Source: a virus (taxonomy: Duplodnaviria; Caudoviricetes). From it: a stretch of DNA of 53,527 nucleotides. A model generated the notes under the pieces. That model was not told the origin of the DNA. It did not search any database and saw nothing but the letters and a program-made list of their open reading frames with translations. Shown here piece after piece: positions 22,345 to 32,256 of this stretch. Where the stretch lies: positions 1 to 53,527 of IMG/VR virus record IMGVR_UViG_3300042922_000627. The stretch is one strand, 5' to 3'. Numbering within the stretch: the first letter of the stretch is position 1; every line of letters starts with the position of its first letter. The translations under genes and the position numbers were made by a program.

Positions 22345-24309
22345 TTACCAATCGTCATAGTATTTCTTCAGAGAATTACCACTTTTCTTTTTTCGTGGCT
22401 TTTGTACCTGGGCCGATGCTGCTTCATTGGATGATGTATTACCAGGTAAAACAGCAGCGACTTTAACGCGAATATCATTTTTCGCTACTTTAAGGCGTTT
22501 ATCTATTGCATCTAGATCCGGTGATAACGCCTTGAATGCAGCAAACGCATAGTTTCGGCAATCAAGAGCTTCGTTACGTTCGTGTCCGGGTATCTTCTCC
22601 CATACCCAGGGTTGTTTCTTCTCAGTATCGTAAACAAGCCGCTCCGATAGTAGCCCTTTAAAATAAGCATCACCGTAATCATCACGCTTGGGAAAGTGGC
22701 TGTACTTAGTTCCCTCAGTCTGCACTCGGAGATTATCCATGATAATCTGTTTTCCCGCATTAACGCCTATATCATATCGCCAGCATGTTCCGATAACCTT
22801 CTTAACTCCGTTTTTGGTTACTACAATTTTCTGCTTTCGTGGTGGCGCAGTGAATGGTGCATCGTGCTTATTGCTTCCGGCGATAGCAAAAACCTTTTTG
22901 CCGATGCGCTTATAGCATTGTTGCCGGACTTCTTGTGTAAAATGGCCGCCCTCATCAGCAAACGTCATTGACAATCTCAAGCCAGATCCGTCAGAAAAAC
23001 GAAAGACATGTTCCAAAACATCGTCCAATCGGGTCCAAGTTTCCGTATCGTCAGGGCGCCCCATTATAATGCCTTTCTTAATTCCCCAATTTTCTCCGAA
23101 ATGCCCAAAACCAACAACCTCATATTCGAGACGGTCATCCTGCGTATCTACGCCACAGGTCAAAACCAGGACACCTTCTGGGAGTTCGGCGCCTTCCGGA
23201 TATTCCTCTCGCCGTGCAAGTAGGCTGTCCTCGTCCTCCAGATCGCCACGATCCTCCCATAGTTCACCGAAGCGTGTGTTATAAACGACCTGTAGTTTCT
23301 TTGAGCTCCCTATTGCATTGAGATATAGTAATATGATTGATTCCCATGAGGCCCAAGGTGAAACAAAAGCATTGAGCCAGAAGGAACGCACACCGTTCTC
23401 ATATGCTGCTGGATTCTCTGCAATCCATTTTCCAGTCTGCCGCTTCATTTCCATTTCGGAAGATATACAGCCGCATCCGGGACATACATAGGAAACGTCT
23501 GTCACCTTGTATGTTTTTTTATTTGCTACGATGATTTCCTCATGCTTATATCTAATTGAAGAGAATGCTATGTTATGATACTCTCCACAATGAGGACATC
23601 GTGAACACCACCGTTCCATTGTTCCTTCGACAAAAGAAGATTCAATAGCACTGGCATTTTTTATTGTCGGGGTAGATACCTCAACAGCCTTTGCGTTGTA
23701 GAATGTTATCTGCCTCGCTCTGGCAAGCTCCCACGGGTCACCTTCTTTTCCTGCCGATGTTGCCCATCGGTCACGCTCGTCACCGAGTATATAGCGGATA
23801 GGTTTTGACGCCAGCGAGTGAGCTTCGGTCGAGCCGCACATTGTCAAAATGCCGCCCGGGTATGTCTTTTGCAATATGGTATTGGCACTGTCCCGGTTCT
23901 TTGGGTCAGCCACCTTTGTCTTGAGTGATTTACAATCCCTTATCATCGGAGCAATTCGGAGCTTAGAGTAATCCTTTGCATCAATGGTGGTCGGGTGGAT
24001 AAACAAAATGCTACCCGGATCTTCATCGATAATGTAACCGATAGTGTTGTTTAATACTTCCGATTTTCCGACCTGTGAAGCAGACGCTACAATTATGCGG
24101 TGCACTTTTGGGTCTGTAAAGGCGTCCATTGGTCCCTGGAGGTAGGGGGTTCTGCTTGTGCGCCATGGCCCAGGTTCAGCACTACTCTCTGGTGAAAGCC
24201 TACGCTTCCTATCAGACCACTCTGAAACAGTCAGGTCTTCAGGGGGTTTCATGCCGGCGATTGCTTTTGATATCGCTGCGTTCAGCCGAAGTTCATCACT
24301 TTTAATCAT
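22345..24309 (-). CDS. Terminase large subunit (GpA family)
   Basis: PGPWRTSRTPY, Walker A SQVGKS, VSTPT, CPHC, GVDTQDDR, RNEALDC; probable start MIKSD at 24309. Confidence 0.96.
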   Translation of the reverse strand: MIKSDELRLNAAISKAIAGMKPPEDLTVSEWSDRKRRLSPESSAEPGPWRTSRTPYLQGPMDAFTDPKVHRIIVASASQVGKSEVLNNTIGYIIDEDPGSILFIHPTTIDAKDYSKLRIAPMIRDCKSLKTKVADPKNRDSANTILQKTYPGGILTMCGSTEAHSLASKPIRYILGDERDRWATSAGKEGDPWELARARQITFYNAKAVEVSTPTIKNASAIESSFVEGTMERWCSRCPHCGEYHNIAFSSIRYKHEEIIVANKKTYKVTDVSYVCPGCGCISSEMEMKRQTGKWIAENPAAYENGVRSFWLNAFVSPWASWESIILLYLNAIGSSKKLQVVYNTRFGELWEDRGDLEDEDSLLARREEYPEGAELPEGVLVLTCGVDTQDDRLEYEVVGFGHFGENWGIKKGIIMGRPDDTETWTRLDDVLEHVFRFSDGSGLRLSMTFADEGGHFTQEVRQQCYKRIGKKVFAIAGSNKHDAPFTAPPRKQKIVVTKNGVKKVIGTCWRYDIGVNAGKQIIMDNLRVQTEGTKYSHFPKRDDYGDAYFKGLLSERLVYDTEKKQPWVWEKIPGHERNEALDCRNYAFAAFKALSPDLDAIDKRLKVAKNDIRVKVAAVLPGNTSSNEAASAQVQKPRKKKSGNSLKKYYDDW

Positions 24310-24844
24310 CGTCAGTATCCGACTTATTTCCAGTGTCCCAACTTCGCCGCTCACGAACGCGCTCATTATATTTCTTAGCGTCGTATTGATAATGCGAAAG
24401 TTCCCCCATGACCTTATGTATTTCCTTACGGATAAACTCAGCCGCCTCTGCAGGAGATGAAATAGCAGCGACATCCACCGCTAGCCTGCCCGGTAACGCC
24501 ATAAGCATACCTCGAATTGTATAAATCAAATCCTCGGTCATGGCCGCAACATCCTCTGAACGGTGCATTTTCCCCTGAAGTTCCTTAGCCTCAAGCACTG
24601 AAACAATTGCTTTAGCCTTTTTAATGCTGACGTCTGCGTCCAGCTTTTCTTTTTCGGCCGCGCTTAGCGCTTTTTCTTTCATGCGGTATTCTATATATTT
24701 TTGAACTGCGTCAGTGAGCAGATATTTGCCTTTGTCACTTTCGATGATTCCGTCTTGTGCGAGCTGCTGTATCCGTCTGCCTGTTACTCCCAAAACAGCA
24801 GCAAGCTCAGTGCCAGATACCTCGGTTTTTGTGGTTATGTCCAT
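24302..24844 (-). CDS. Terminase small subunit (Nu1-like)
   Basis: N-terminal wHTH ELAAVLGVTGRRIQQLAQDG; directly upstream of the large subunit. Confidence 0.9.
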   Translation of the reverse strand: MDITTKTEVSGTELAAVLGVTGRRIQQLAQDGIIESDKGKYLLTDAVQKYIEYRMKEKALSAAEKEKLDADVSIKKAKAIVSVLEAKELQGKMHRSEDVAAMTEDLIYTIRGMLMALPGRLAVDVAAISSPAEAAEFIRKEIHKVMGELSHYQYDAKKYNERVRERRSWDTGNKSDTDDD

Positions 24845-25086: not shown

Positions 25087-25611
25087 CTACAGCTTTGTTA
25101 TAAGTTCTGCCTTGCTATATGTCTTAACATCCTTTGTCATGAGTGAGAGGAAATCATCACGAGAGAATTCTGATAGCCTGAATACTTCCTCTGGTCTCAT
25201 ACCTAACTGCTTACCTATTTCATTTACTGATTTACCTTCAGTAAGTAAGCGTTGAACTATTGCTTTCATTGGGCCGAGTAGATGAGTACCACGTGCCCTG
25301 TTGTGTGTGACCGTACCATAAATATCACCAGCTGAATCTGTATGCTTCACTATGACAACGGGTACTTTACCACTAAGCTTTGTTATCAGTGGTTCTTCTC
25401 CTGACACCATCCACCGATGAAAGCCGTCGATGATGGTCATGTCCGGTCGTACCACTATAGGAAGCGTCCAACCGTTGGTGAGTATGGACTGTTTGAGCAG
25501 ATTCAAGTTCTCGCGTGTGACCTTGTTTGGGTTATAGTCATTAGCTTTAAGCCTACTCCTGTCTATCCATTGAAGCGAACCAAGTGGTGCAAATATATCT
25601 ACATCATGCAT
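25087..25611 (-). CDS. ParB/Srx-fold protein, IbrB-like
   Basis: LKANDYNPN, GWTLPIVV, IIDGFHRW, TVTHNRARGTH; start MHDVD overlaps upstream stop. Confidence 0.88.
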   Translation of the reverse strand: MHDVDIFAPLGSLQWIDRSRLKANDYNPNKVTRENLNLLKQSILTNGWTLPIVVRPDMTIIDGFHRWMVSGEEPLITKLSGKVPVVIVKHTDSAGDIYGTVTHNRARGTHLLGPMKAIVQRLLTEGKSVNEIGKQLGMRPEEVFRLSEFSRDDFLSLMTKDVKTYSKAELITKL

Positions 25612-26758
25612 TTGCTTCGCCTCCTTTCCGGAAGCGCTTGGCATATTCTGCATAAGAGCAGTATATATCCTGGTATATAGCGCGTAATGTTCTGAGCTTT
25701 GGATCACCGGCTATAAGTCCCTCATATATTTTGCGATAGTCACGTGGTCTTGCCATGCCATCCATCTCAATGAACAATTTACGGTAGCGTTTGGCCACAG
25801 CCACTTTATGCGGGGTATTGAAATACTCTTCAGGACGCTCAAACAGCATTTCCATGAGTAATGCCCGGTAGTCCTTTATGTCATCACCTTCAAGCTCTTT
25901 CCTCTTTCGGGAAGTGCGCCTGAACATTTCACTGTCCCAATACAATACAGCCAGGTATGCATTCGGCTCTCTGCGTATGACCTTCTCCATGAGTGTCGGT
26001 TCATATTCACCCATATGGACCAAGCTCGGTACCGTATCCACTGAAAAGAACTGTGACACTCGGAGCATATTCCGATTTGTTCCTGATTGGTACATATGCA
26101 GGTAAATGACCGGAATGTCGACCTTTTCATTTTTCAGATACAGCCAAACGTCAGATGTCTTCCAGTCATATATGGGATAAATCATATTTTTGTTGGTGAT
26201 ACCGCCTGCGCCCATATTAAGCGCTGACATATACTGTAAGCGCTGTACTGACTCGGAAGTCCTCACACCCGTTATCATGATTCCATCCATAGTGACTTTC
26301 GGTAGGAAAGTTTGATAACTGTCTACGCGTGGTCGTAGCTTCGGATGATTTAGCAGGGCGAATGGAGGCGGCCGCCTTATCCATATATCCTGCTTTTGTC
26401 TGTCCCAGCATATGAACGACTCATCGCTCGTAAGCTCATTCAGACAATTAAAATGTTTTACCTCAACACACCACCACTGGAATTTGGCGCCGGCGAGTAG
26501 GAATTTCTTTCTCCATACTTTGACGGTTTCTTCAATACAATCGAAGATTGCTTCCTCGTCTATAAAGAGGACTGTCAGGAGAGAGGCATCTATCTCTCCT
26601 GAGTGGATCAGCTTCAGAGTAAGGTCAGCCAGACACAAACTGTCTTTACCTCCGGAGAATGACATATACACCGGTACACCATTTGAAAATACATTTTTTA
26701 GCCTTTTCCTTGCAACGGTTACTACATCCATGTCGGATTGCACACGCTTTATAGCCAT
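25604..26758 (-). CDS. PP-loop PAPS-reductase-family protein, IbrA-like
   Basis: SFSGGKDS PP-loop, FIDEE, GVRTSESVQR, YPIYDW..DVW. Confidence 0.9.
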   Translation of the reverse strand: MAIKRVQSDMDVVTVARKRLKNVFSNGVPVYMSFSGGKDSLCLADLTLKLIHSGEIDASLLTVLFIDEEAIFDCIEETVKVWRKKFLLAGAKFQWWCVEVKHFNCLNELTSDESFICWDRQKQDIWIRRPPPFALLNHPKLRPRVDSYQTFLPKVTMDGIMITGVRTSESVQRLQYMSALNMGAGGITNKNMIYPIYDWKTSDVWLYLKNEKVDIPVIYLHMYQSGTNRNMLRVSQFFSVDTVPSLVHMGEYEPTLMEKVIRREPNAYLAVLYWDSEMFRRTSRKRKELEGDDIKDYRALLMEMLFERPEEYFNTPHKVAVAKRYRKLFIEMDGMARPRDYRKIYEGLIAGDPKLRTLRAIYQDIYCSYAEYAKRFRKGGEANA

Positions 26759-27342
26759 ATCCGCTCACCACATTTCTGGCAGAGGATATACTTGCGCTTC
26801 TCTTCCGCAGGTTCGGAAGGAGGGACATATTGCTCGGCGGTTTGCGCAGCTGCTTCCTCCTGAGCTTCGTATTTATCCCTGGTTTCCTTGATGTCGTTCT
26901 TGCGGCTCTCGTCAATAGTGCCGTATTCCTGCAGTGCTATTCCTGCCTCGTCTGCTTCCATGACGATGGATTTCAATAAATCCTCTTCAAAGCCTGGAAT
27001 ATCAAGGTCGTCTTTTAGCTCCAGGATAAAAGCATCGAACGTAGCCAGGTCATCGACACCCAAGTCGAATACTCTGTTGTCTGCCAACATCAACTTTTTC
27101 TTTCCCGATTCTGTCAGGCCAGATACAATATAGCAATCCGCTTCTGTTCTCCCCAGAGAACTGAGGGCTTCATACAAACCATTGCCGGCCAGTATCACAT
27201 TGTCCTCGTCGATGACGATGGGGCGGATCTGGTCGAACATTTCTATTGATCGTCTGAACTCATGGAGCTGTTTGTCAGTATGCAAACGCACATTACGCTC
27301 CGGCTTTTTGAGATCAGCCAGCTTTTTCTTGATTATCTTCAT
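26749..27342 (-). CDS. ParB N-terminal-domain protein with C-terminal Zn ribbon
   Basis: NVRLH...IRPIVIDEDNVILAGNG...LADNR; CQKCG. Confidence 0.85.
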   Translation of the reverse strand: MKIIKKKLADLKKPERNVRLHTDKQLHEFRRSIEMFDQIRPIVIDEDNVILAGNGLYEALSSLGRTEADCYIVSGLTESGKKKLMLADNRVFDLGVDDLATFDAFILELKDDLDIPGFEEDLLKSIVMEADEAGIALQEYGTIDESRKNDIKETRDKYEAQEEAAAQTAEQYVPPSEPAEEKRKYILCQKCGERIWL

Positions 27343-28715
27343 GCCCTCACCGCCTTTCGGGATGCGAGGACAGCCACTATGCCGCTCATGAGCACAGTGG
27401 TTAAACTTCCGATTGTCTTATACAGAGCAATATTGAATATATTGCCGTAAGCGAATATCGGCAAGCCTAAGCATAATGAAATCAAGACACCAATAAAAAC
27501 GCCCCGAGCAGATAACTTCTTGCCGAGTAATGTCATTACTGTTGGCAAGAGAGTCGATGCCCTGAGCGTACCATAAAACAAAAACAACCATGTTACTGTC
27601 AGGCCTGGTATATTGGAAATCGCTATTGCTACTACCAGCAGCATTAACATAGTAAGCTTTGACTTTTTTATGCTGCTACCAGTCTTGAGGTCCGACGTCA
27701 TGGATGCAGCTGCACATAGATTACTTGATACTGTGGATAGCAATCCAGATAGTATCATAAACAGGAATGGTATAAGAACCCACGCTGGGAAGATGGAAGA
27801 TATAAACTCGAAATTTACCATTCCCACATCAGAGGCTTTGAAGCCTGAGCCTGCTGCTATGAATCCCATCGCTCCCATTGCTATGGGTACGAGGGCAAAT
27901 ATTAACGCTCCAACAAAAAACGCCTTACCTATATGCTCCTTCCTGATTGAAAACACTCGTTGCCAAAAACATTGGTCTCCAAATGGTCCAGATGTCAGTC
28001 CTATCGCTGTAGGTAATCCGAAACCGAGGAATACCGCCAGCCCTGTTTGTGATGTCAACGAGGTCATGTTACCATTGATGGAGCCGAGTCCTTGAATTAG
28101 CGCAGACGCTCCACCATTCATTTTAAGCGCCCAAGGCACAAGTAATATACAACCACCTAAAATGATTATCATTTGCAAGGTGTCAGTTGCAACTGCCGCC
28201 TTAATGCCTGAAAACTGAGAGTATGAATAAGCAATCACAGCGAGCAGCATTGTCATAACCCAGAAGGGAAGTCCTGTTATTAGCGAAAGTATTTTACTCC
28301 CGGCCAGTAGTTGCACCGCTGTAGATAGAATAGCTAATGTCCCAAGCTGGAATGAATAAATGCCCTTCACTTTATTGCTTTGATATTTTTCTCCCATATA
28401 TCCGGATAGAGTAATACCCTGTGGAAATTCATTCCGGATCCGTTTTGCAAATGGGATAAATAACATAAGGCAAAGTACATTCGGTACCAGGAACCAGAAC
28501 ATTCCCGGTATACCATTTTGATATGCCTGCTGTCCTGAAACAAACAGTGCAGGTGCCCATACCCATGTTGCAGCAATACTCATGGCCGAAATCCCAAATG
28601 GAATTTTCCTGTCGGCTACATGGAACCTCTCAGCATTGGCCGTCCATTTAGTGAATATCACGGTCGTTGCTATCATAATAAAAGCATAAATAAATAATAC
28701 AAGAAAACCGTTCAT
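27339..28715 (-). CDS. Sodium:solute symporter (SSS) family membrane protein
   Basis: Many hydrophobic segments; SIAATWVWAPAL, YSQFSGIKAAVATD, DQCFWQRVFS, SGLLST. Confidence 0.88.
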   Translation of the reverse strand: MNGFLVLFIYAFIMIATTVIFTKWTANAERFHVADRKIPFGISAMSIAATWVWAPALFVSGQQAYQNGIPGMFWFLVPNVLCLMLFIPFAKRIRNEFPQGITLSGYMGEKYQSNKVKGIYSFQLGTLAILSTAVQLLAGSKILSLITGLPFWVMTMLLAVIAYSYSQFSGIKAAVATDTLQMIIILGGCILLVPWALKMNGGASALIQGLGSINGNMTSLTSQTGLAVFLGFGLPTAIGLTSGPFGDQCFWQRVFSIRKEHIGKAFFVGALIFALVPIAMGAMGFIAAGSGFKASDVGMVNFEFISSIFPAWVLIPFLFMILSGLLSTVSSNLCAAASMTSDLKTGSSIKKSKLTMLMLLVVAIAISNIPGLTVTWLFLFYGTLRASTLLPTVMTLLGKKLSARGVFIGVLISLCLGLPIFAYGNIFNIALYKTIGSLTTVLMSGIVAVLASRKAVRA

Positions 28716-28719
28716 GTAA

Positions 28720-28825
28720 AAAATCCTCCTTATTTTTTGTTTCCCGCTGCCGGCTGCTGGCGAACAGACACGACCCGGTACTGACTTTGCGTAAAGGAGA
28801 AACGCAGAGCCAAAATCCTCCTTTC
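28720..28825 (-). promoter_or_regulatory. Structured 5' leader of the symporter (duplicated SD, anti-SD hairpin loop, possible 27-aa uORF 28813-28730)
   Basis: AAGGAGGATTTT at 28823-28812 and 28731-28720; hairpin GCTCTGCGT-TTCTCCTTT-ACGCAAAGT between them. Confidence 0.6.
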
Positions 28826-28858
28826 AAATAAAATAGCGACTCCTTTTTAGAAGTCGCT
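28826..28858 (-). terminator. Terminator-like hairpin just downstream of the putative late promoter
   Basis: AGCGACTTCT-AAAA-AGGAGTCGCT followed by ATTTTATTT. Confidence 0.55.
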
Positions 28859-28900
28859 TGCTTATGTGGGATTTTACAGTTTAATGCTATCAAATATCAC

Positions 28901-28948
28901 TCGGGACATCAATACGGGGATTCGGGACATTAGGGGTTATTCGGGACA
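28901..28948 (-). promoter_or_regulatory. Direct repeats, probable late-activator binding sites
   Basis: TCGGGACA at 28901, 28922 and 28941 (about two helical turns apart) upstream of the late operon. Confidence 0.65.
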
Positions 28949-28971
28949 ACTTTTATAATCTTAATTACTAA

Positions 28972-29118
28972 TTATTTTACTGGCTCAACACATGCAGGCT
29001 CAAGATAATGTGCAAATCCATTCTCGTAGCATTCATCGAAATAATTACACTGTGGACAATTCTCAAATTGTACCTTGATAATATTGCCTTTATGCATGAC
29101 TTCTATATTTTGTTCCAC
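28972..29118 (-). CDS. Small Cys-rich protein (48 aa, not in ORF track)
   Basis: GGAGG-6 nt-GTG; MEQNIEVMHKGNIIKVQFENCPQCNYFDECY... Confidence 0.6.
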   Translation of the reverse strand: MEQNIEVMHKGNIIKVQFENCPQCNYFDECYENGFAHYLEPACVEPVK

Positions 29119-29137
29119 ATTATACCTCCTTCAACAC

Positions 29138-29407
29138 TTATTCATTATGCGATACGATTTCTTGAAATTCATCATATTCATAACCGCTACATTCTTCTTT
29201 ACAATCGGCTTCATTATTGACACATCGGTATCTGTATCCTTCATCTTCTGTTTTAACGCTAATAAACCAATTACAACTAAGACATAGATTACGCTTTCCT
29301 CCTATTGTGAATCTTGCTCCGCAATAATCACACTGGCATTTAACTGGTTCACCTACTACAAGTGTTTCTCTCATTGCACCTACACATCTTTCACAGGCCA
29401 AAACCAT
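29138..29407 (-). CDS. Small Cys-rich / Zn-finger protein (start uncertain)
   Basis: CERC, CDYC, CLSC motifs. Confidence 0.6.
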   Translation of the reverse strand: MVLACERCVGAMRETLVVGEPVKCQCDYCGARFTIGGKRNLCLSCNWFISVKTEDEGYRYRCVNNEADCKEECSGYEYDEFQEIVSHNE

Positions 29408-29553
29408 TACCCCCAAAATTACACTATATTCATGATCCGACGTACTTTTCTTATTTTGCGCCCAAAAATGGACATAAAAAACGCACATCGTTTAAATGAA
29501 TGTGCGGTAATAGAATGATTCTTGATATATAAAGATTGCGAACTAAATCAATT

Positions 29554-30348
29554 TCATATTATGTTCATTTTTATTGTTGGCATTTCTTTTTCAATCTTTT
29601 TATTGAAGAATTCATTTTTGTTCTTTAGAACTATAGGAATACAAATAATTACACATATAGTGGTTGCTAAAGCATAAAACAAAACGCCTTCTCTACTTTG
29701 AAGAAGTGTAACAGAACCGACATTAACGCCAAAGTGGAACAATATCATGCATAATAAATTCCCACTGGTTTTCATATATACCCATGCCATAAAAATCGAA
29801 AAACATATTATCAACATTACAAACAGAAAAAAGCCCGATAATCCATAAGTAAATTTGCAGTGCCATATACCCCATAATGAACCAACGACTATTGTACTGT
29901 AAAACATATTATGCTTTTTTGCAAACATAGGTAATAGATAACCTCTCCAGCCGATTTCCTCTGTAATACATCCGAGCATTGCAGTAATAATTGTGATAAC
30001 ATATCCTAACGAAGTATCTTTCCAAATCACAAATTGATTTCCCATCGAAGATATTATCAGTGATGAAATTAAGATTACAGCCACAGGCAAGAATAAGGAT
30101 ACTAACATCCATAACAGAATTTTTTTTGTTTTAACAGAATTCCAATTCATTTTCACCCAAGCAGACCAATTATTTAACATCCCGCAAATGAGAACAAGTC
30201 CGATTGTAGGTGCATATTGTGGTGAAATAAATGCATTGTTTGTAAACATATATGCCGCTCCCAAAATAATTGTTATTAAAAAGGTAATCACAAAATAAAT
30301 AGCTATTATGTATCTTTTAAGAAAAGAGTTCTCGGTTTTTGTCTTCAT
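29554..30348 (-). CDS. CPBP/CAAX (Abi) intramembrane metalloprotease, moron
   Basis: EEIGWRG, WGIWH, HFGVN motifs; AT-rich; own promoter. Confidence 0.92.
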   Translation of the reverse strand: MKTKTENSFLKRYIIAIYFVITFLITIILGAAYMFTNNAFISPQYAPTIGLVLICGMLNNWSAWVKMNWNSVKTKKILLWMLVSLFLPVAVILISSLIISSMGNQFVIWKDTSLGYVITIITAMLGCITEEIGWRGYLLPMFAKKHNMFYSTIVVGSLWGIWHCKFTYGLSGFFLFVMLIICFSIFMAWVYMKTSGNLLCMILFHFGVNVGSVTLLQSREGVLFYALATTICVIICIPIVLKNKNEFFNKKIEKEMPTIKMNII

Positions 30349-30522: not shown

Positions 30523-31110
30523 CTACTTGTTTACCTGAAATATCCACAAATAGCTGTGATTCTTTCTGGCATGCTTTTGCTCATATACCGGTTTTGGTCT
30601 TTTTGTATTTATCAGAATGAACAAATCTTCTGCATACATTCCAAGTTCTTTCTCAGCAATATTTTTTATTTCTTCGTGTGTCCAATACTGCTTACCACCG
30701 TAAATTTCATCTTGGCACTTACATAAAATATAGCCTTTACTCCTGATTGCTCTTTTTAATTCGCATAGTCCATCCCTGTACATTTGGACAATATCATTAT
30801 GAGTTGTAAACCTGGTAGTATTGTAGCAGTGTTGCATACCTTTCAGCTCAAGCCTTGCATATGGAGGGTCAATCGCTCCGTGGTCAAAAGAATTATCCTT
30901 GTGCGGCAGCTGTCTAAAATCTATGCCCATTTTTATGTCGGTACCAACAATTTCATATTTGCTTTTATCAATGTCTTTCCAAAAAACTCCCCTGCCATAT
31001 GTAACATCTGCTATTCTGCTACCCTTTTCAAAATATAGGTTAACAGCATTTTTTATTAACCCTGAATTGCATCCGTGATGCACTGTATAAATAATCTTTT
31101 CTTCTTCCAA
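30523..31110 (-). CDS. Amino (N6-A/N4-C) DNA methyltransferase-like protein
   Basis: ADVTYGRGVFW SAM-binding motif followed by DPPY; probable TTG start at 31110 after GGAGG. Confidence 0.78.
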   Translation of the reverse strand: MEEEKIIYTVHHGCNSGLIKNAVNLYFEKGSRIADVTYGRGVFWKDIDKSKYEIVGTDIKMGIDFRQLPHKDNSFDHGAIDPPYARLELKGMQHCYNTTRFTTHNDIVQMYRDGLCELKRAIRSKGYILCKCQDEIYGGKQYWTHEEIKNIAEKELGMYAEDLFILINTKRPKPVYEQKHARKNHSYLWIFQVNK

Positions 31111-31163
31111 ACTTTTCACCTCCTGGTTGGTGCGCAATAGACTTATGATCCGACGCATCTTTC

Positions 31164-31842: not shown

Positions 31843-32256
31843 TTATTTTTCAAACTGCTTACCTGCCCTCAAAAACCTGTAACAAACCTTTTTTATACTT
31901 TCTGCGGTGTTGTTACCACCCATTTCTTCAGCCACCTGGCTCCATGGTTTGAGGTCTACAAACCTCAGATACATAATAAGCCTTATTTGATAGTCGTGAA
32001 TACTATCTATATATTGCTGTATTTTCATTTGTTCTTCAAAGAGGCGCTTCTGTTCCTCAACAATCTGCTGCTGCATGTCCACAATGAGCGGGATAATCTC
32101 TCCAATAGGGTTCTTTGTCCCAGTCTTACGCGGCATATCTGTCAATATCTGCACTCCAGACTGTAGCCTTTCCTCCAGGTCAACCAAACGCTGAGTGTCC
32201 CGGTCAATCAGCTTTTGTATGTAGTACAGTTTAGATAATTCTTTTAAGTCCACCAC
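31843..32256 (-). CDS. RinA/ArpU-like late transcriptional activator
   Basis: C-terminal sigma-4-like HTH RLIMYLRFVDLKPWSQVAEEMG; end of early region. Confidence 0.8.
   Translation of the reverse strand: MVDLKELSKLYYIQKLIDRDTQRLVDLEERLQSGVQILTDMPRKTGTKNPIGEIIPLIVDMQQQIVEEQKRLFEEQMKIQQYIDSIHDYQIRLIMYLRFVDLKPWSQVAEEMGGNNTAESIKKVCYRFLRAGKQFEK

Follow-up and report, generated by a model that had tools for sequence, protein, structure and literature searches.

The window analysed here, a 53,527-nt stretch of Caudoviricetes DNA (IMG/VR record IMGVR_UViG_3300042922_000627), comes from a prophage or phage whose late operon, on the minus strand, opens with the gene for an SSS-family symporter. The leader of this gene belongs to a new, widespread leader family of a known mechanistic kind: the true Shine-Dalgarno (SD) sequence of the symporter has a complementary anti-SD within the same RNA, with which it co-varies between relatives, and a second SD (the orphan SD), seemingly without a gene of its own, lies further upstream. 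Leaders of this family contain covarying helices, have no match in Rfam and are widespread in prophages hosted by Clostridia of the human and animal gut (among them Oscillospiraceae and Lachnospiraceae), where they head the late operon. Our favoured interpretation, held tentatively and with confidence a little short of even, is that a pseudoknot or hairpin masking the true SD throttles translation, and that the exposed upstream “super-SD” docks 30S ribosomal subunits, either as a standby site or as a stabiliser resembling a STAB-SD.

Within the window, where the leader features are read on the minus strand, the 12-mer AAGGAGGATTTT has just two copies in the 53.5 kb, at 28823-28812 and 28731-28720. 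Dinucleotide shuffles contained a mean of 0.03 copies, and none of 100 reached two. The downstream copy spans the true SD of the symporter, AAGGAGGA (28731-28724), which has a 9-nt spacing to the ATG at 28715-28713, and the upstream copy overlaps the orphan SD, or “pseudo-SD”, GAAAGGAGGA (28825-28816). Between the two lies the P1 hairpin (28811-28783), in which GGCU-C-UGCGU pairs with ACGCA-A-AGUC, with a 1 × 1 C/A mismatch and one G-U pair, around a 9-nt loop formed by the anti-SD UUCUCCUUU (28801-28793). Eight contiguous pairs are open to this loop with the downstream SD and nine with the upstream copy. The folding energy of P1 is −10.5 kcal/mol (z = −4.73), a value equalled by none of 200 shuffles. 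The duplicated block, the hairpin and the loop complementary to both SDs had been reported in a first-pass annotation of this DNA, and the coordinates and sequences given there are all correct. The folding energy of the entire leader is ordinary (z = −1.47; +0.52 and −0.32 for sub-stretches), and the case for a function was therefore built on conservation and covariation in relatives.

Relatives of the symporter numbered 145 in viral contigs (80 of 145 were fetched, at 59-88% identity) and 100 in species-representative genomes, mostly of Oscillospiraceae and Lachnospiraceae (80 of 100 fetched, at 57-100% identity). A pattern scan for the upstream SD together with a conserved box near the predicted transcription start (described below) located the same full leader ahead of a membrane protein of 333 amino acids as well, for which no Pfam family was found and which has no significant similarity to the symporter (BLASTP E = 0.18). 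The 222 leaders extracted comprise 158 that are distinct over their last 150 nt, 118 of them before the symporter and 40 before the 333-amino acid protein. Among these 158, which come from Clostridia phages, an orphan SD, defined by a duplex with the 16S rRNA tail of −12 kcal/mol or better, is present in 129, an anti-SD in 147 and both in 123. On the chromosome of Clostridioides difficile, the region upstream of a 59%-identical symporter homologue (L270) has no orphan SD by the criteria used. Prophages with the leader of the window are present in genomes of Anaerotruncus colihominis and Agathobaculum desmolans (loci L238 and L235).

Searches with Rfam gave no match at gathering score in the whole window or in ten related loci, the preQ1-I, -II and -III classes and the Na+/Li+ riboswitch motifs included; for positions 28600-29150, searched at E values up to 10, just a chance match to STnc240 was returned (19.5 bits versus the 55 needed, E = 3). 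The leader had no blastn match in a phage GenBank collection, in which the symporter protein matched one unannotated record. No RNA run was found among the sequencing runs listed as containing this sequence. The literature searched, supplements apart, holds no account of this leader, of a design that combines a masked SD with an orphan SD, or of a leader to a symporter/ParB/PAPS-reductase cassette.

The window carries the long class of leader, for which RNAalifold, applied to 25 leaders, recovered the P1 helix, a long-range helix P3 (UACCG 28780-28776 with CGGGA 28746-28742) and the helix of an upstream terminator, the last with compensatory changes; in total, 17 of the 23 predicted pairs showed such changes. 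A per-sequence stem search added the P2 hairpin (CUGU 28767-28764 with GCAG 28757-28754), which lies within P3 to form a P3/P2 domain spanning 28780-28742 and has covarying stems and a near-invariant loop, YCGCCA. MAFFT alignments misplaced P2, and the leaders were hence realigned to a covariance model, R1, built from 23 of them. With this model, 49 matches were obtained in a set of 100 loci and 59 in a set of 83, and all matches end close to the predicted start codon of a transporter. In the 52 distinct sequences of the resulting alignment, which was fitted to the model structure, standard pairs fill 86.0% of the cells, compared with 69.7% in shuffled alignments and 29-47% when the partners were slid. 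Nineteen of 20 pairs changed on both sides, with a covariation score of 0.425 against 0.181. By helix, P1 was 91.8% paired with eight of nine pairs changed on both sides, P3 was 88% paired with compensatory changes in all five pairs, and P2 was 70.7% paired. Covariation of the hairpin in homologous leaders had been set beforehand as a test of the first-pass proposal, and the P1 stem bears it out.

The highest mutual information pairs all fall in P1, P3 and P2, and mutual information over the aligned leaders revealed no additional helix. Every one of the 52 P1 loops contains CUCC and can form at least six contiguous pairs with the SD; the loops are 8-12 nt long, save one of 30 nt. This conserved, covarying structure, a trait reminiscent of riboswitches, is confined to the long class. 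The P2 loop (UCGCCA at 28763-28758 in the window) hardly varies over approximately 50 diverse leaders and is seen again in two further classes. Possible partners for it in the terminator arm, the spacer between SD and start codon, and the region past P3, inspected by eye, are complementary in some lineages only and do not covary with it.

The SD served by the anti-SD was assessed from three anchored windows per leader (upstream SD, anti-SD and true SD), with duplex energies compared within and between leaders. An unanchored search for the best duplex was dropped because pairings between T-runs and A-runs and those of the terminator dominated it. Duplexes of anti-SD and true SD were more stable when cognate (−12.0 versus −10.8 kcal/mol for non-cognate pairs), and none of 2,000 permutations gave a value as low. 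By class, the cognate advantage was reached by 22 of 2,000 permutations in the long class (7 of 2,000 with tighter windows) and by none of 2,000 in the others. Partition-function folds of the 123 leaders gave a probability of anti-SD:true SD pairing of 0.72-0.81 in the 56 leaders whose elements lie less than 40 nt apart. For the 63 leaders of the long class this probability was 0.24, with the anti-SD 0.60 unpaired in the P1 loop; it is left there because nested folding tools cannot represent pseudoknots. Counts of covariation across the pseudoknot columns of the long class were uninformative, since the cores of anti-SD and SD are invariant and the register of the SD shifts.

These results separate two parts of the first-pass proposal. 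A real, conserved cis-regulatory leader with a genuine anti-SD loop is supported, but the idea that the loop toggles between the two SDs is not. Such a three-way switch, with the loop on the upstream SD in the ON state and on the downstream SD in the OFF state, would draw on the complementarity of the loop to both copies (at least six contiguous pairs with the upstream SD in 52/52 long-class leaders) and on the order of transcription, which would favour the upstream partner. However, cognate duplexes between upstream SD and anti-SD were never better, and were slightly worse, than non-cognate ones in every subset, and the mean ensemble probability of this pairing was 0.03. For the window, inclusion of the upstream SD leaves P1 as the fold of minimum energy, and while P1 is intact the connecting loop would be 0-1 nt, too short to span the helix by the usual geometry of pseudoknots. 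We consider this switch very unlikely.

In the other leader classes, pairing of the anti-SD with the SD is retained in different surroundings. In a middle class, P1 does not enclose the anti-SD, which instead closes a helix with the SD over a small YCGCCA hairpin, a Lachnospiraceae class has the anti-SD CUCCUCCAA with the SD UUGGAGGA, and in a short class the terminator T-run is followed directly by the anti-SD, an A-rich loop and the SD. Common to all classes are the promoter, box, terminator and anti-SD:SD pairing, with the upstream SD in most. The location of the anti-SD in the loop of P1 means that pairing with the SD would yield an H-type pseudoknot in the long class, whereas it yields a plain hairpin in the others. 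An RNA thermometer was also considered and set aside: judged by eye, the SD hairpins of the short class are perfect 8-bp helices that lack the mismatches typical of thermometers.

In preQ1-II riboswitches, the SD of the gene downstream is bound by a hairpin loop or a strand of a pseudoknot, whose long loop has a further hairpin embedded in it. The first-pass comparison with this class is apt as a description of mechanism, as pairing of the loop with the downstream SD around an intact P1 would produce a pseudoknot of the H type. As in preQ1-II and other SD-sequestering pseudoknot riboswitches (abstracts of PMC11625349 and PMC4604430), the SD that is paired belongs to the downstream gene, here a transporter, consistent with control of translation and not of transcription. 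Unlike preQ1 riboswitches, the leader lacks a sequence or structure match in Rfam, other leader classes of the same gene lack its candidate aptamer domain, and an extra SD, predicted to be exposed, lies upstream.

An orphan riboswitch is one way to account for the P1-P3/P2 domain, which would act as an aptamer for the transported compound or for a precursor of the ParB/PAPS-reductase pathway, with the ligand stabilising or releasing the loop:SD pseudoknot. The domain has several helices within about 90 nt, covaries strongly and contains unpaired nucleotides that do not vary (the YCGCCA loop and the CCGGG and GCAGCGG stretches), it is coupled to what resembles the expression platform of an SD-sequestering pseudoknot, the absence of an Rfam match would fit an undescribed class, and the same leader precedes two unrelated transporter families. 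Against this, orthologous symporters (57-88% identity) have leaders of the short and Lachnospiraceae types that lack P3/P2 and keep the anti-SD:SD pairing, some consisting of just the anti-SD, an A-rich loop and the SD. It is thus the expression platform and not the candidate aptamer that is conserved across classes, the reverse of the usual pattern. Moreover, P3/P2 amounts in essence to a single long hairpin whose apical loop is conserved, a form more typically seen in protein sites or loop-loop contacts. A search of 151 sampled genomes from one host order with R1 gave a single match, in the query genome itself and directly upstream of a homologue of the symporter, so that no copy was found outside that context. 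On balance, we regard a riboswitch as rather unlikely. In its boldest form, on which we would place equally little weight, P1-P3/P2 with its YCGCCA loop would be the aptamer of an undescribed riboswitch class of gut Clostridia phages, sensing a compound imported by the symporter, or by the 333-amino acid transporter, for a DNA-modification cassette of ParB and PAPS-reductase proteins; the ligand would then name both the substrate of the transporter and the modification chemistry of the cassette.

The near-invariant apical loop of 6-7 nt on a covarying stem could equally be read as an operator. A phage protein (ParB-like, PAPS-reductase-like or the late regulator) would bind the YCGCCA hairpin of P2 and set translation of the symporter and the cassette, possibly by autoregulation. 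The element is always found with the same cassette, including in two deletion variants (L100 and L152) that retain the leader before the PAPS-reductase gene. However, searches of cassette proteins identified none with an RNA-binding domain, and classes without P2 exist, leaving an operator of this kind a doubtful explanation to us.

Upstream of the structured region, the leader has the arrangement of a late transcription module. A σA-type promoter is predicted at 28912-28884, with a −35 of TTGATG (28912-28907), a 17-nt spacer and a TG-extended −10 of TAGCAT (28889-28884); a generic promoter scan chose slightly different hexamers here (GTGATA-18-TAAAAT). Six nucleotides past the −10, at approximately +1 of the predicted transcript, lies the conserved box GTAAAATCCCACAT (28877-28864), which contains a −10-like TAAAAT at +2 to +7. 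It is followed by an intrinsic terminator (28858-28825) with a stem-loop at 28858-28835 of ten pairs, five of them G-C, and a T-run at 28834-28825 with the tail ATTTTATTTG. Since the promoter and box lie upstream of it, the terminator sits within the transcribed leader. By rough criteria, box and terminator are both present in 110 of the 154 distinct leaders with sufficient upstream sequence, and the two box positions left free by the search pattern, 10 and 11, are T in 103 and A in 95 of these 110. In 75 of the 110, the box is preceded by a −10-like hexamer whose end lies 6-7 nt upstream; an extended TG occurs in 63, and a −35 with at least four of six matches in 61. The same layout of promoter, box (within approximately 20 nt of the promoter) and terminator as in window positions 28825-28948 was observed ahead of the first late-gene SD in L370-L387.

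Three direct repeats of TGTCCCGA (28948-28941, 28929-28922 and 28908-28901), spaced 19 and 21 nt apart and the last overlapping the −35, are likely to be bound by the phage late regulator; two copies occur in the relative L002. Where the regulator is of a different subgroup, the phages show, by eye, TTGGCAC-type repeats of their own in the same place. The candidate for this regulator in the window is a protein of 137 amino acids (31843-32256, minus strand) that matches the phrog_36 transcriptional regulators (E = 1.7e−11) and has weak matches to sigma70-ECF and DUF1492, giving it a likeness to regulators of the Ltr type (sigma-70 region 4/DUF1492). Homologues of this gene adjoin the leader directly upstream in many relatives, and it lies approximately 3 kb away in the window.

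At the Q-controlled late promoter PR′ of lambdoid phages, transcription from a strong promoter runs at once through an element resembling a −10 and, a short way on but still before the late genes, meets an intrinsic terminator. The window matches this Q-type layout in its promoter, in the TAAAAT within the first transcribed bases and in the terminator that precedes the late genes. It differs from it in that no Q-family antiterminator was detected among the few window open reading frames (ORFs) that were scanned, and pausing and antitermination would here be postulated by analogy. The Ltr superfamily comprises late regulators of Gram-positive phages that control terS operons (passages of PMC3753634). 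The window resembles that system in encoding a small sigma region 4/DUF1492-like regulator upstream of the leader, and departs from it in having a terminator downstream of the predicted promoter. By analogy with Q, this layout suggests that Ltr-type regulators may act by antitermination and not solely by activation, in which case the published model would need revising.

The orphan SD lies directly behind this module, within approximately 3 nt of the terminator T-run in most leaders and with the T-run no more than 25 nt upstream in 111 of the 123 leaders with both elements. It is a perfect complement of 9-10 nt to the 3′ tail of 16S rRNA, with the anchored consensus GGAAAGGAGG. The 16S rRNA 3′ ends of two host genomes with related prophages read ...CACCTCCTTTCTA, and the tail motif used is thus valid for those hosts. 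Binding to the 16S tail is stronger at the orphan SD than at the true SD in 119/123 leaders (mean −15.5 versus −11.7 kcal/mol), and ensemble folds of the 123 leaders predict that the orphan SD is mostly single-stranded (unpaired 0.55 on average). The anti-SD follows it at a constrained distance (median 15 nt, at most 27 nt in 119/123); the gap between the anti-SD and the true SD varies between 2 and 130 nt.

Few of these SDs are positioned to serve a reading frame of their own. Among the 129 leaders with an upstream SD, an ATG, GTG or TTG follows at 4-10 nt in 26 and at only 0-3 nt in 28, the window included; no start codon follows in 66, and no SD core was found in nine. The upstream ORF (uORF) of 27 codons reported for the window in the first-pass annotation is indeed present, running from a TTG at 28813, merely 3 nt past GGAGGA, to a TAA (28732-28730) that shares bases with the beginning of the symporter SD block. 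The leader-peptide attenuation that it was thought to indicate, or alternatively termination and reinitiation at the TAA within the SD, finds a further parallel in L100, where an ATG lies 5 nt past the upstream SD and its frame crosses the whole leader into the PAPS-reductase gene. The peptides nevertheless differ in frame, length and stop position, and several of the ORFs enter the downstream gene out of frame. Together with the small number of leaders that have a start codon at 4-10 nt, this makes control by a uORF highly improbable.

Two transporter-less relatives (L132 and L370) offer a clue to the origin of the upstream SD. Both have the same promoter, box and terminator, followed by GGAAAGGAGG, a 7-nt spacer and the ATG of an HNH endonuclease gene. 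By eye, 17 distinct relatives of their regulator group likewise have the regulator gene, then a hairpin, a T-run, an SD and the start of an HNH gene. The SD of the first late gene is real in L132 and L370, and the upstream SD of the window is therefore its positional homologue; the comparison of these sequences indicates that it is left without a gene once it is followed by the transporter cassette, which has a masked SD of its own. The ORFs behind the HNH gene in L132 and L370, one of them DNA-methylase-like, were read without a search as packaging genes.

This positional homology raises the alternative that the upstream SD is a mere relic of insertion of the cassette behind the SD of the first gene, idle in what would be a static SD-masking leader. 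Its absence, by the threshold used, from 29 of the 158 leaders would agree with this. A relic should decay, however, and the extended consensus is kept across diverse leaders, with symporters down to approximately 57% identity, in which the flanking spacers vary; this counts against a relic. The greater strength of the orphan SD over the true SD in nearly all leaders that have both argues in the same direction, and we judge an idle upstream SD to be quite unlikely.

The interpretation that we favour, masking of the true SD combined with docking of 30S subunits upstream, would operate as follows. Transcription would start from the σA-type promoter, on or near the G in the conserved box (28877), and the transcript must then traverse the promoter-proximal terminator, a step presumably under the control of the Ltr-type late regulator. 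In the read-through RNA, the symporter SD would be masked by the anti-SD, in the class of the window through an H-type pseudoknot whose long connecting loop would be the P3/P2 domain. Masking would throttle the translation of a membrane protein whose late mRNA is heavily transcribed. The orphan SD, without a usable start codon, may bind 30S subunits with no initiation, and a subunit docked there could shield the poorly translated 5′ end of the long mRNA in the manner of a STAB-SD. The anti-SD falls inside the footprint of a 30S subunit downstream of the upstream SD. Given that it lies within approximately 27 nt of the orphan SD, a subunit bound at the latter could also cover P1 or open it up, freeing the true SD in a standby-like manner.

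Precedents exist for both roles of a docked subunit. The STAB-SD of cry3A from Bacillus thuringiensis is an SD-like, 16S-complementary but non-initiating stretch of the 5′ untranslated region, approximately 100 nt upstream of the start codon, and is proposed to hold a 30S subunit that blocks 5′-3′ decay by RNase J1 (passages of PMC4113751). The orphan SD of the window is similarly located in a 5′ untranslated region, complementary to the 16S 3′ end and without a start codon that it serves. It differs in that an anti-SD masks the true SD, a promoter-proximal terminator precedes it and the hosts are Clostridia, and stabilisation may be proposed here by analogy. For tisB of E. coli and the coat cistron of MS2, an accessible single-stranded site upstream of a sequestered ribosome binding site has been described; the tisB standby site lies approximately 100 nt upstream, is accompanied by a 5′ structure element, and acts in an S1-dependent manner with no SD (abstracts of PMC7708055, PMC6690012 and PMC5934652). 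The putative docking site in our leaders, unlike that of tisB, is a perfect SD. The predicted combination of a masked SD with a stronger, exposed orphan SD should provide a clean system in which to test STAB-SD and standby ideas beyond Bacillus and E. coli.

Several points weigh against this interpretation. The 29 leaders without an orphan SD include the short class, and the orphan SD is therefore not indispensable. A static throttle would leave the conserved P3/P2 domain and its near-invariant YCGCCA loop unexplained, and these suggest a specific binding partner. On energy alone, the loop of the long class pairs about equally well with either SD (mean −9.1 versus −8.9 kcal/mol). That the downstream pairing is the sole one to fit sterically with an intact P1 is argued from general pseudoknot geometry and not from a computation. 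Finally, fitting of the 52-sequence alignment (A3) to the model structure somewhat inflates its paired percentage.

The leader stands at the entry to an auxiliary cassette (25087-28715) that sits between the late promoter and the presumed terminase genes, directly ahead of the latter. Its genes, all on the minus strand, encode the symporter (458 amino acids, 27339-28715), a ParB-like protein (26749-27342), a PAPS-reductase-like protein (25604-26758) and a second ParB-like protein (25087-25707). The symporter matches Pfam PF00474 (E = 2e−18) and phrog_20720, of unknown function; its best relatives of solved structure are DUR3 urea symporters (E = 4e−17), and its stop codon overlaps the start of the next gene (ATGA). 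Downstream on the same strand are a likely small terminase (24302-24844), named from its translation and gene order with no Pfam family found, and the presumed large terminase (22345-24474), likewise named from translation and gene order. The ORF that follows was read as a portal gene on the same grounds.

The transporter slot of the cassette varies among relatives, holding the SSS symporter, the unrelated 333-amino acid membrane protein or, in L312, an ORF of 168 amino acids; L099 and L316 are further loci in which this cassette was noted. In the deletion variants L100 (8053-9333) and L152 (3403-3465), the leader SD serves only a remnant ORF of 20-21 amino acids, with a stop codon that overlaps the PAPS-reductase start. 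A truncated leader runs into the reductase gene in L313. The symporter stretch of the window is identical to a contig of a metagenome-assembled genome.

Just upstream of the late promoter, two small cysteine-rich ORFs (28972-29100 and 29138-29488, minus strand) have no family matches; for the one of 116 amino acids, no Pfam family was found. Further upstream lie genes for a CPBP/Rce1-like membrane protease (29554-30348) and a DNA methylase-like protein (30523-31158). Together with the cysteine-rich ORFs, these have the look of a block of morons that separates the regulator gene from the late promoter.

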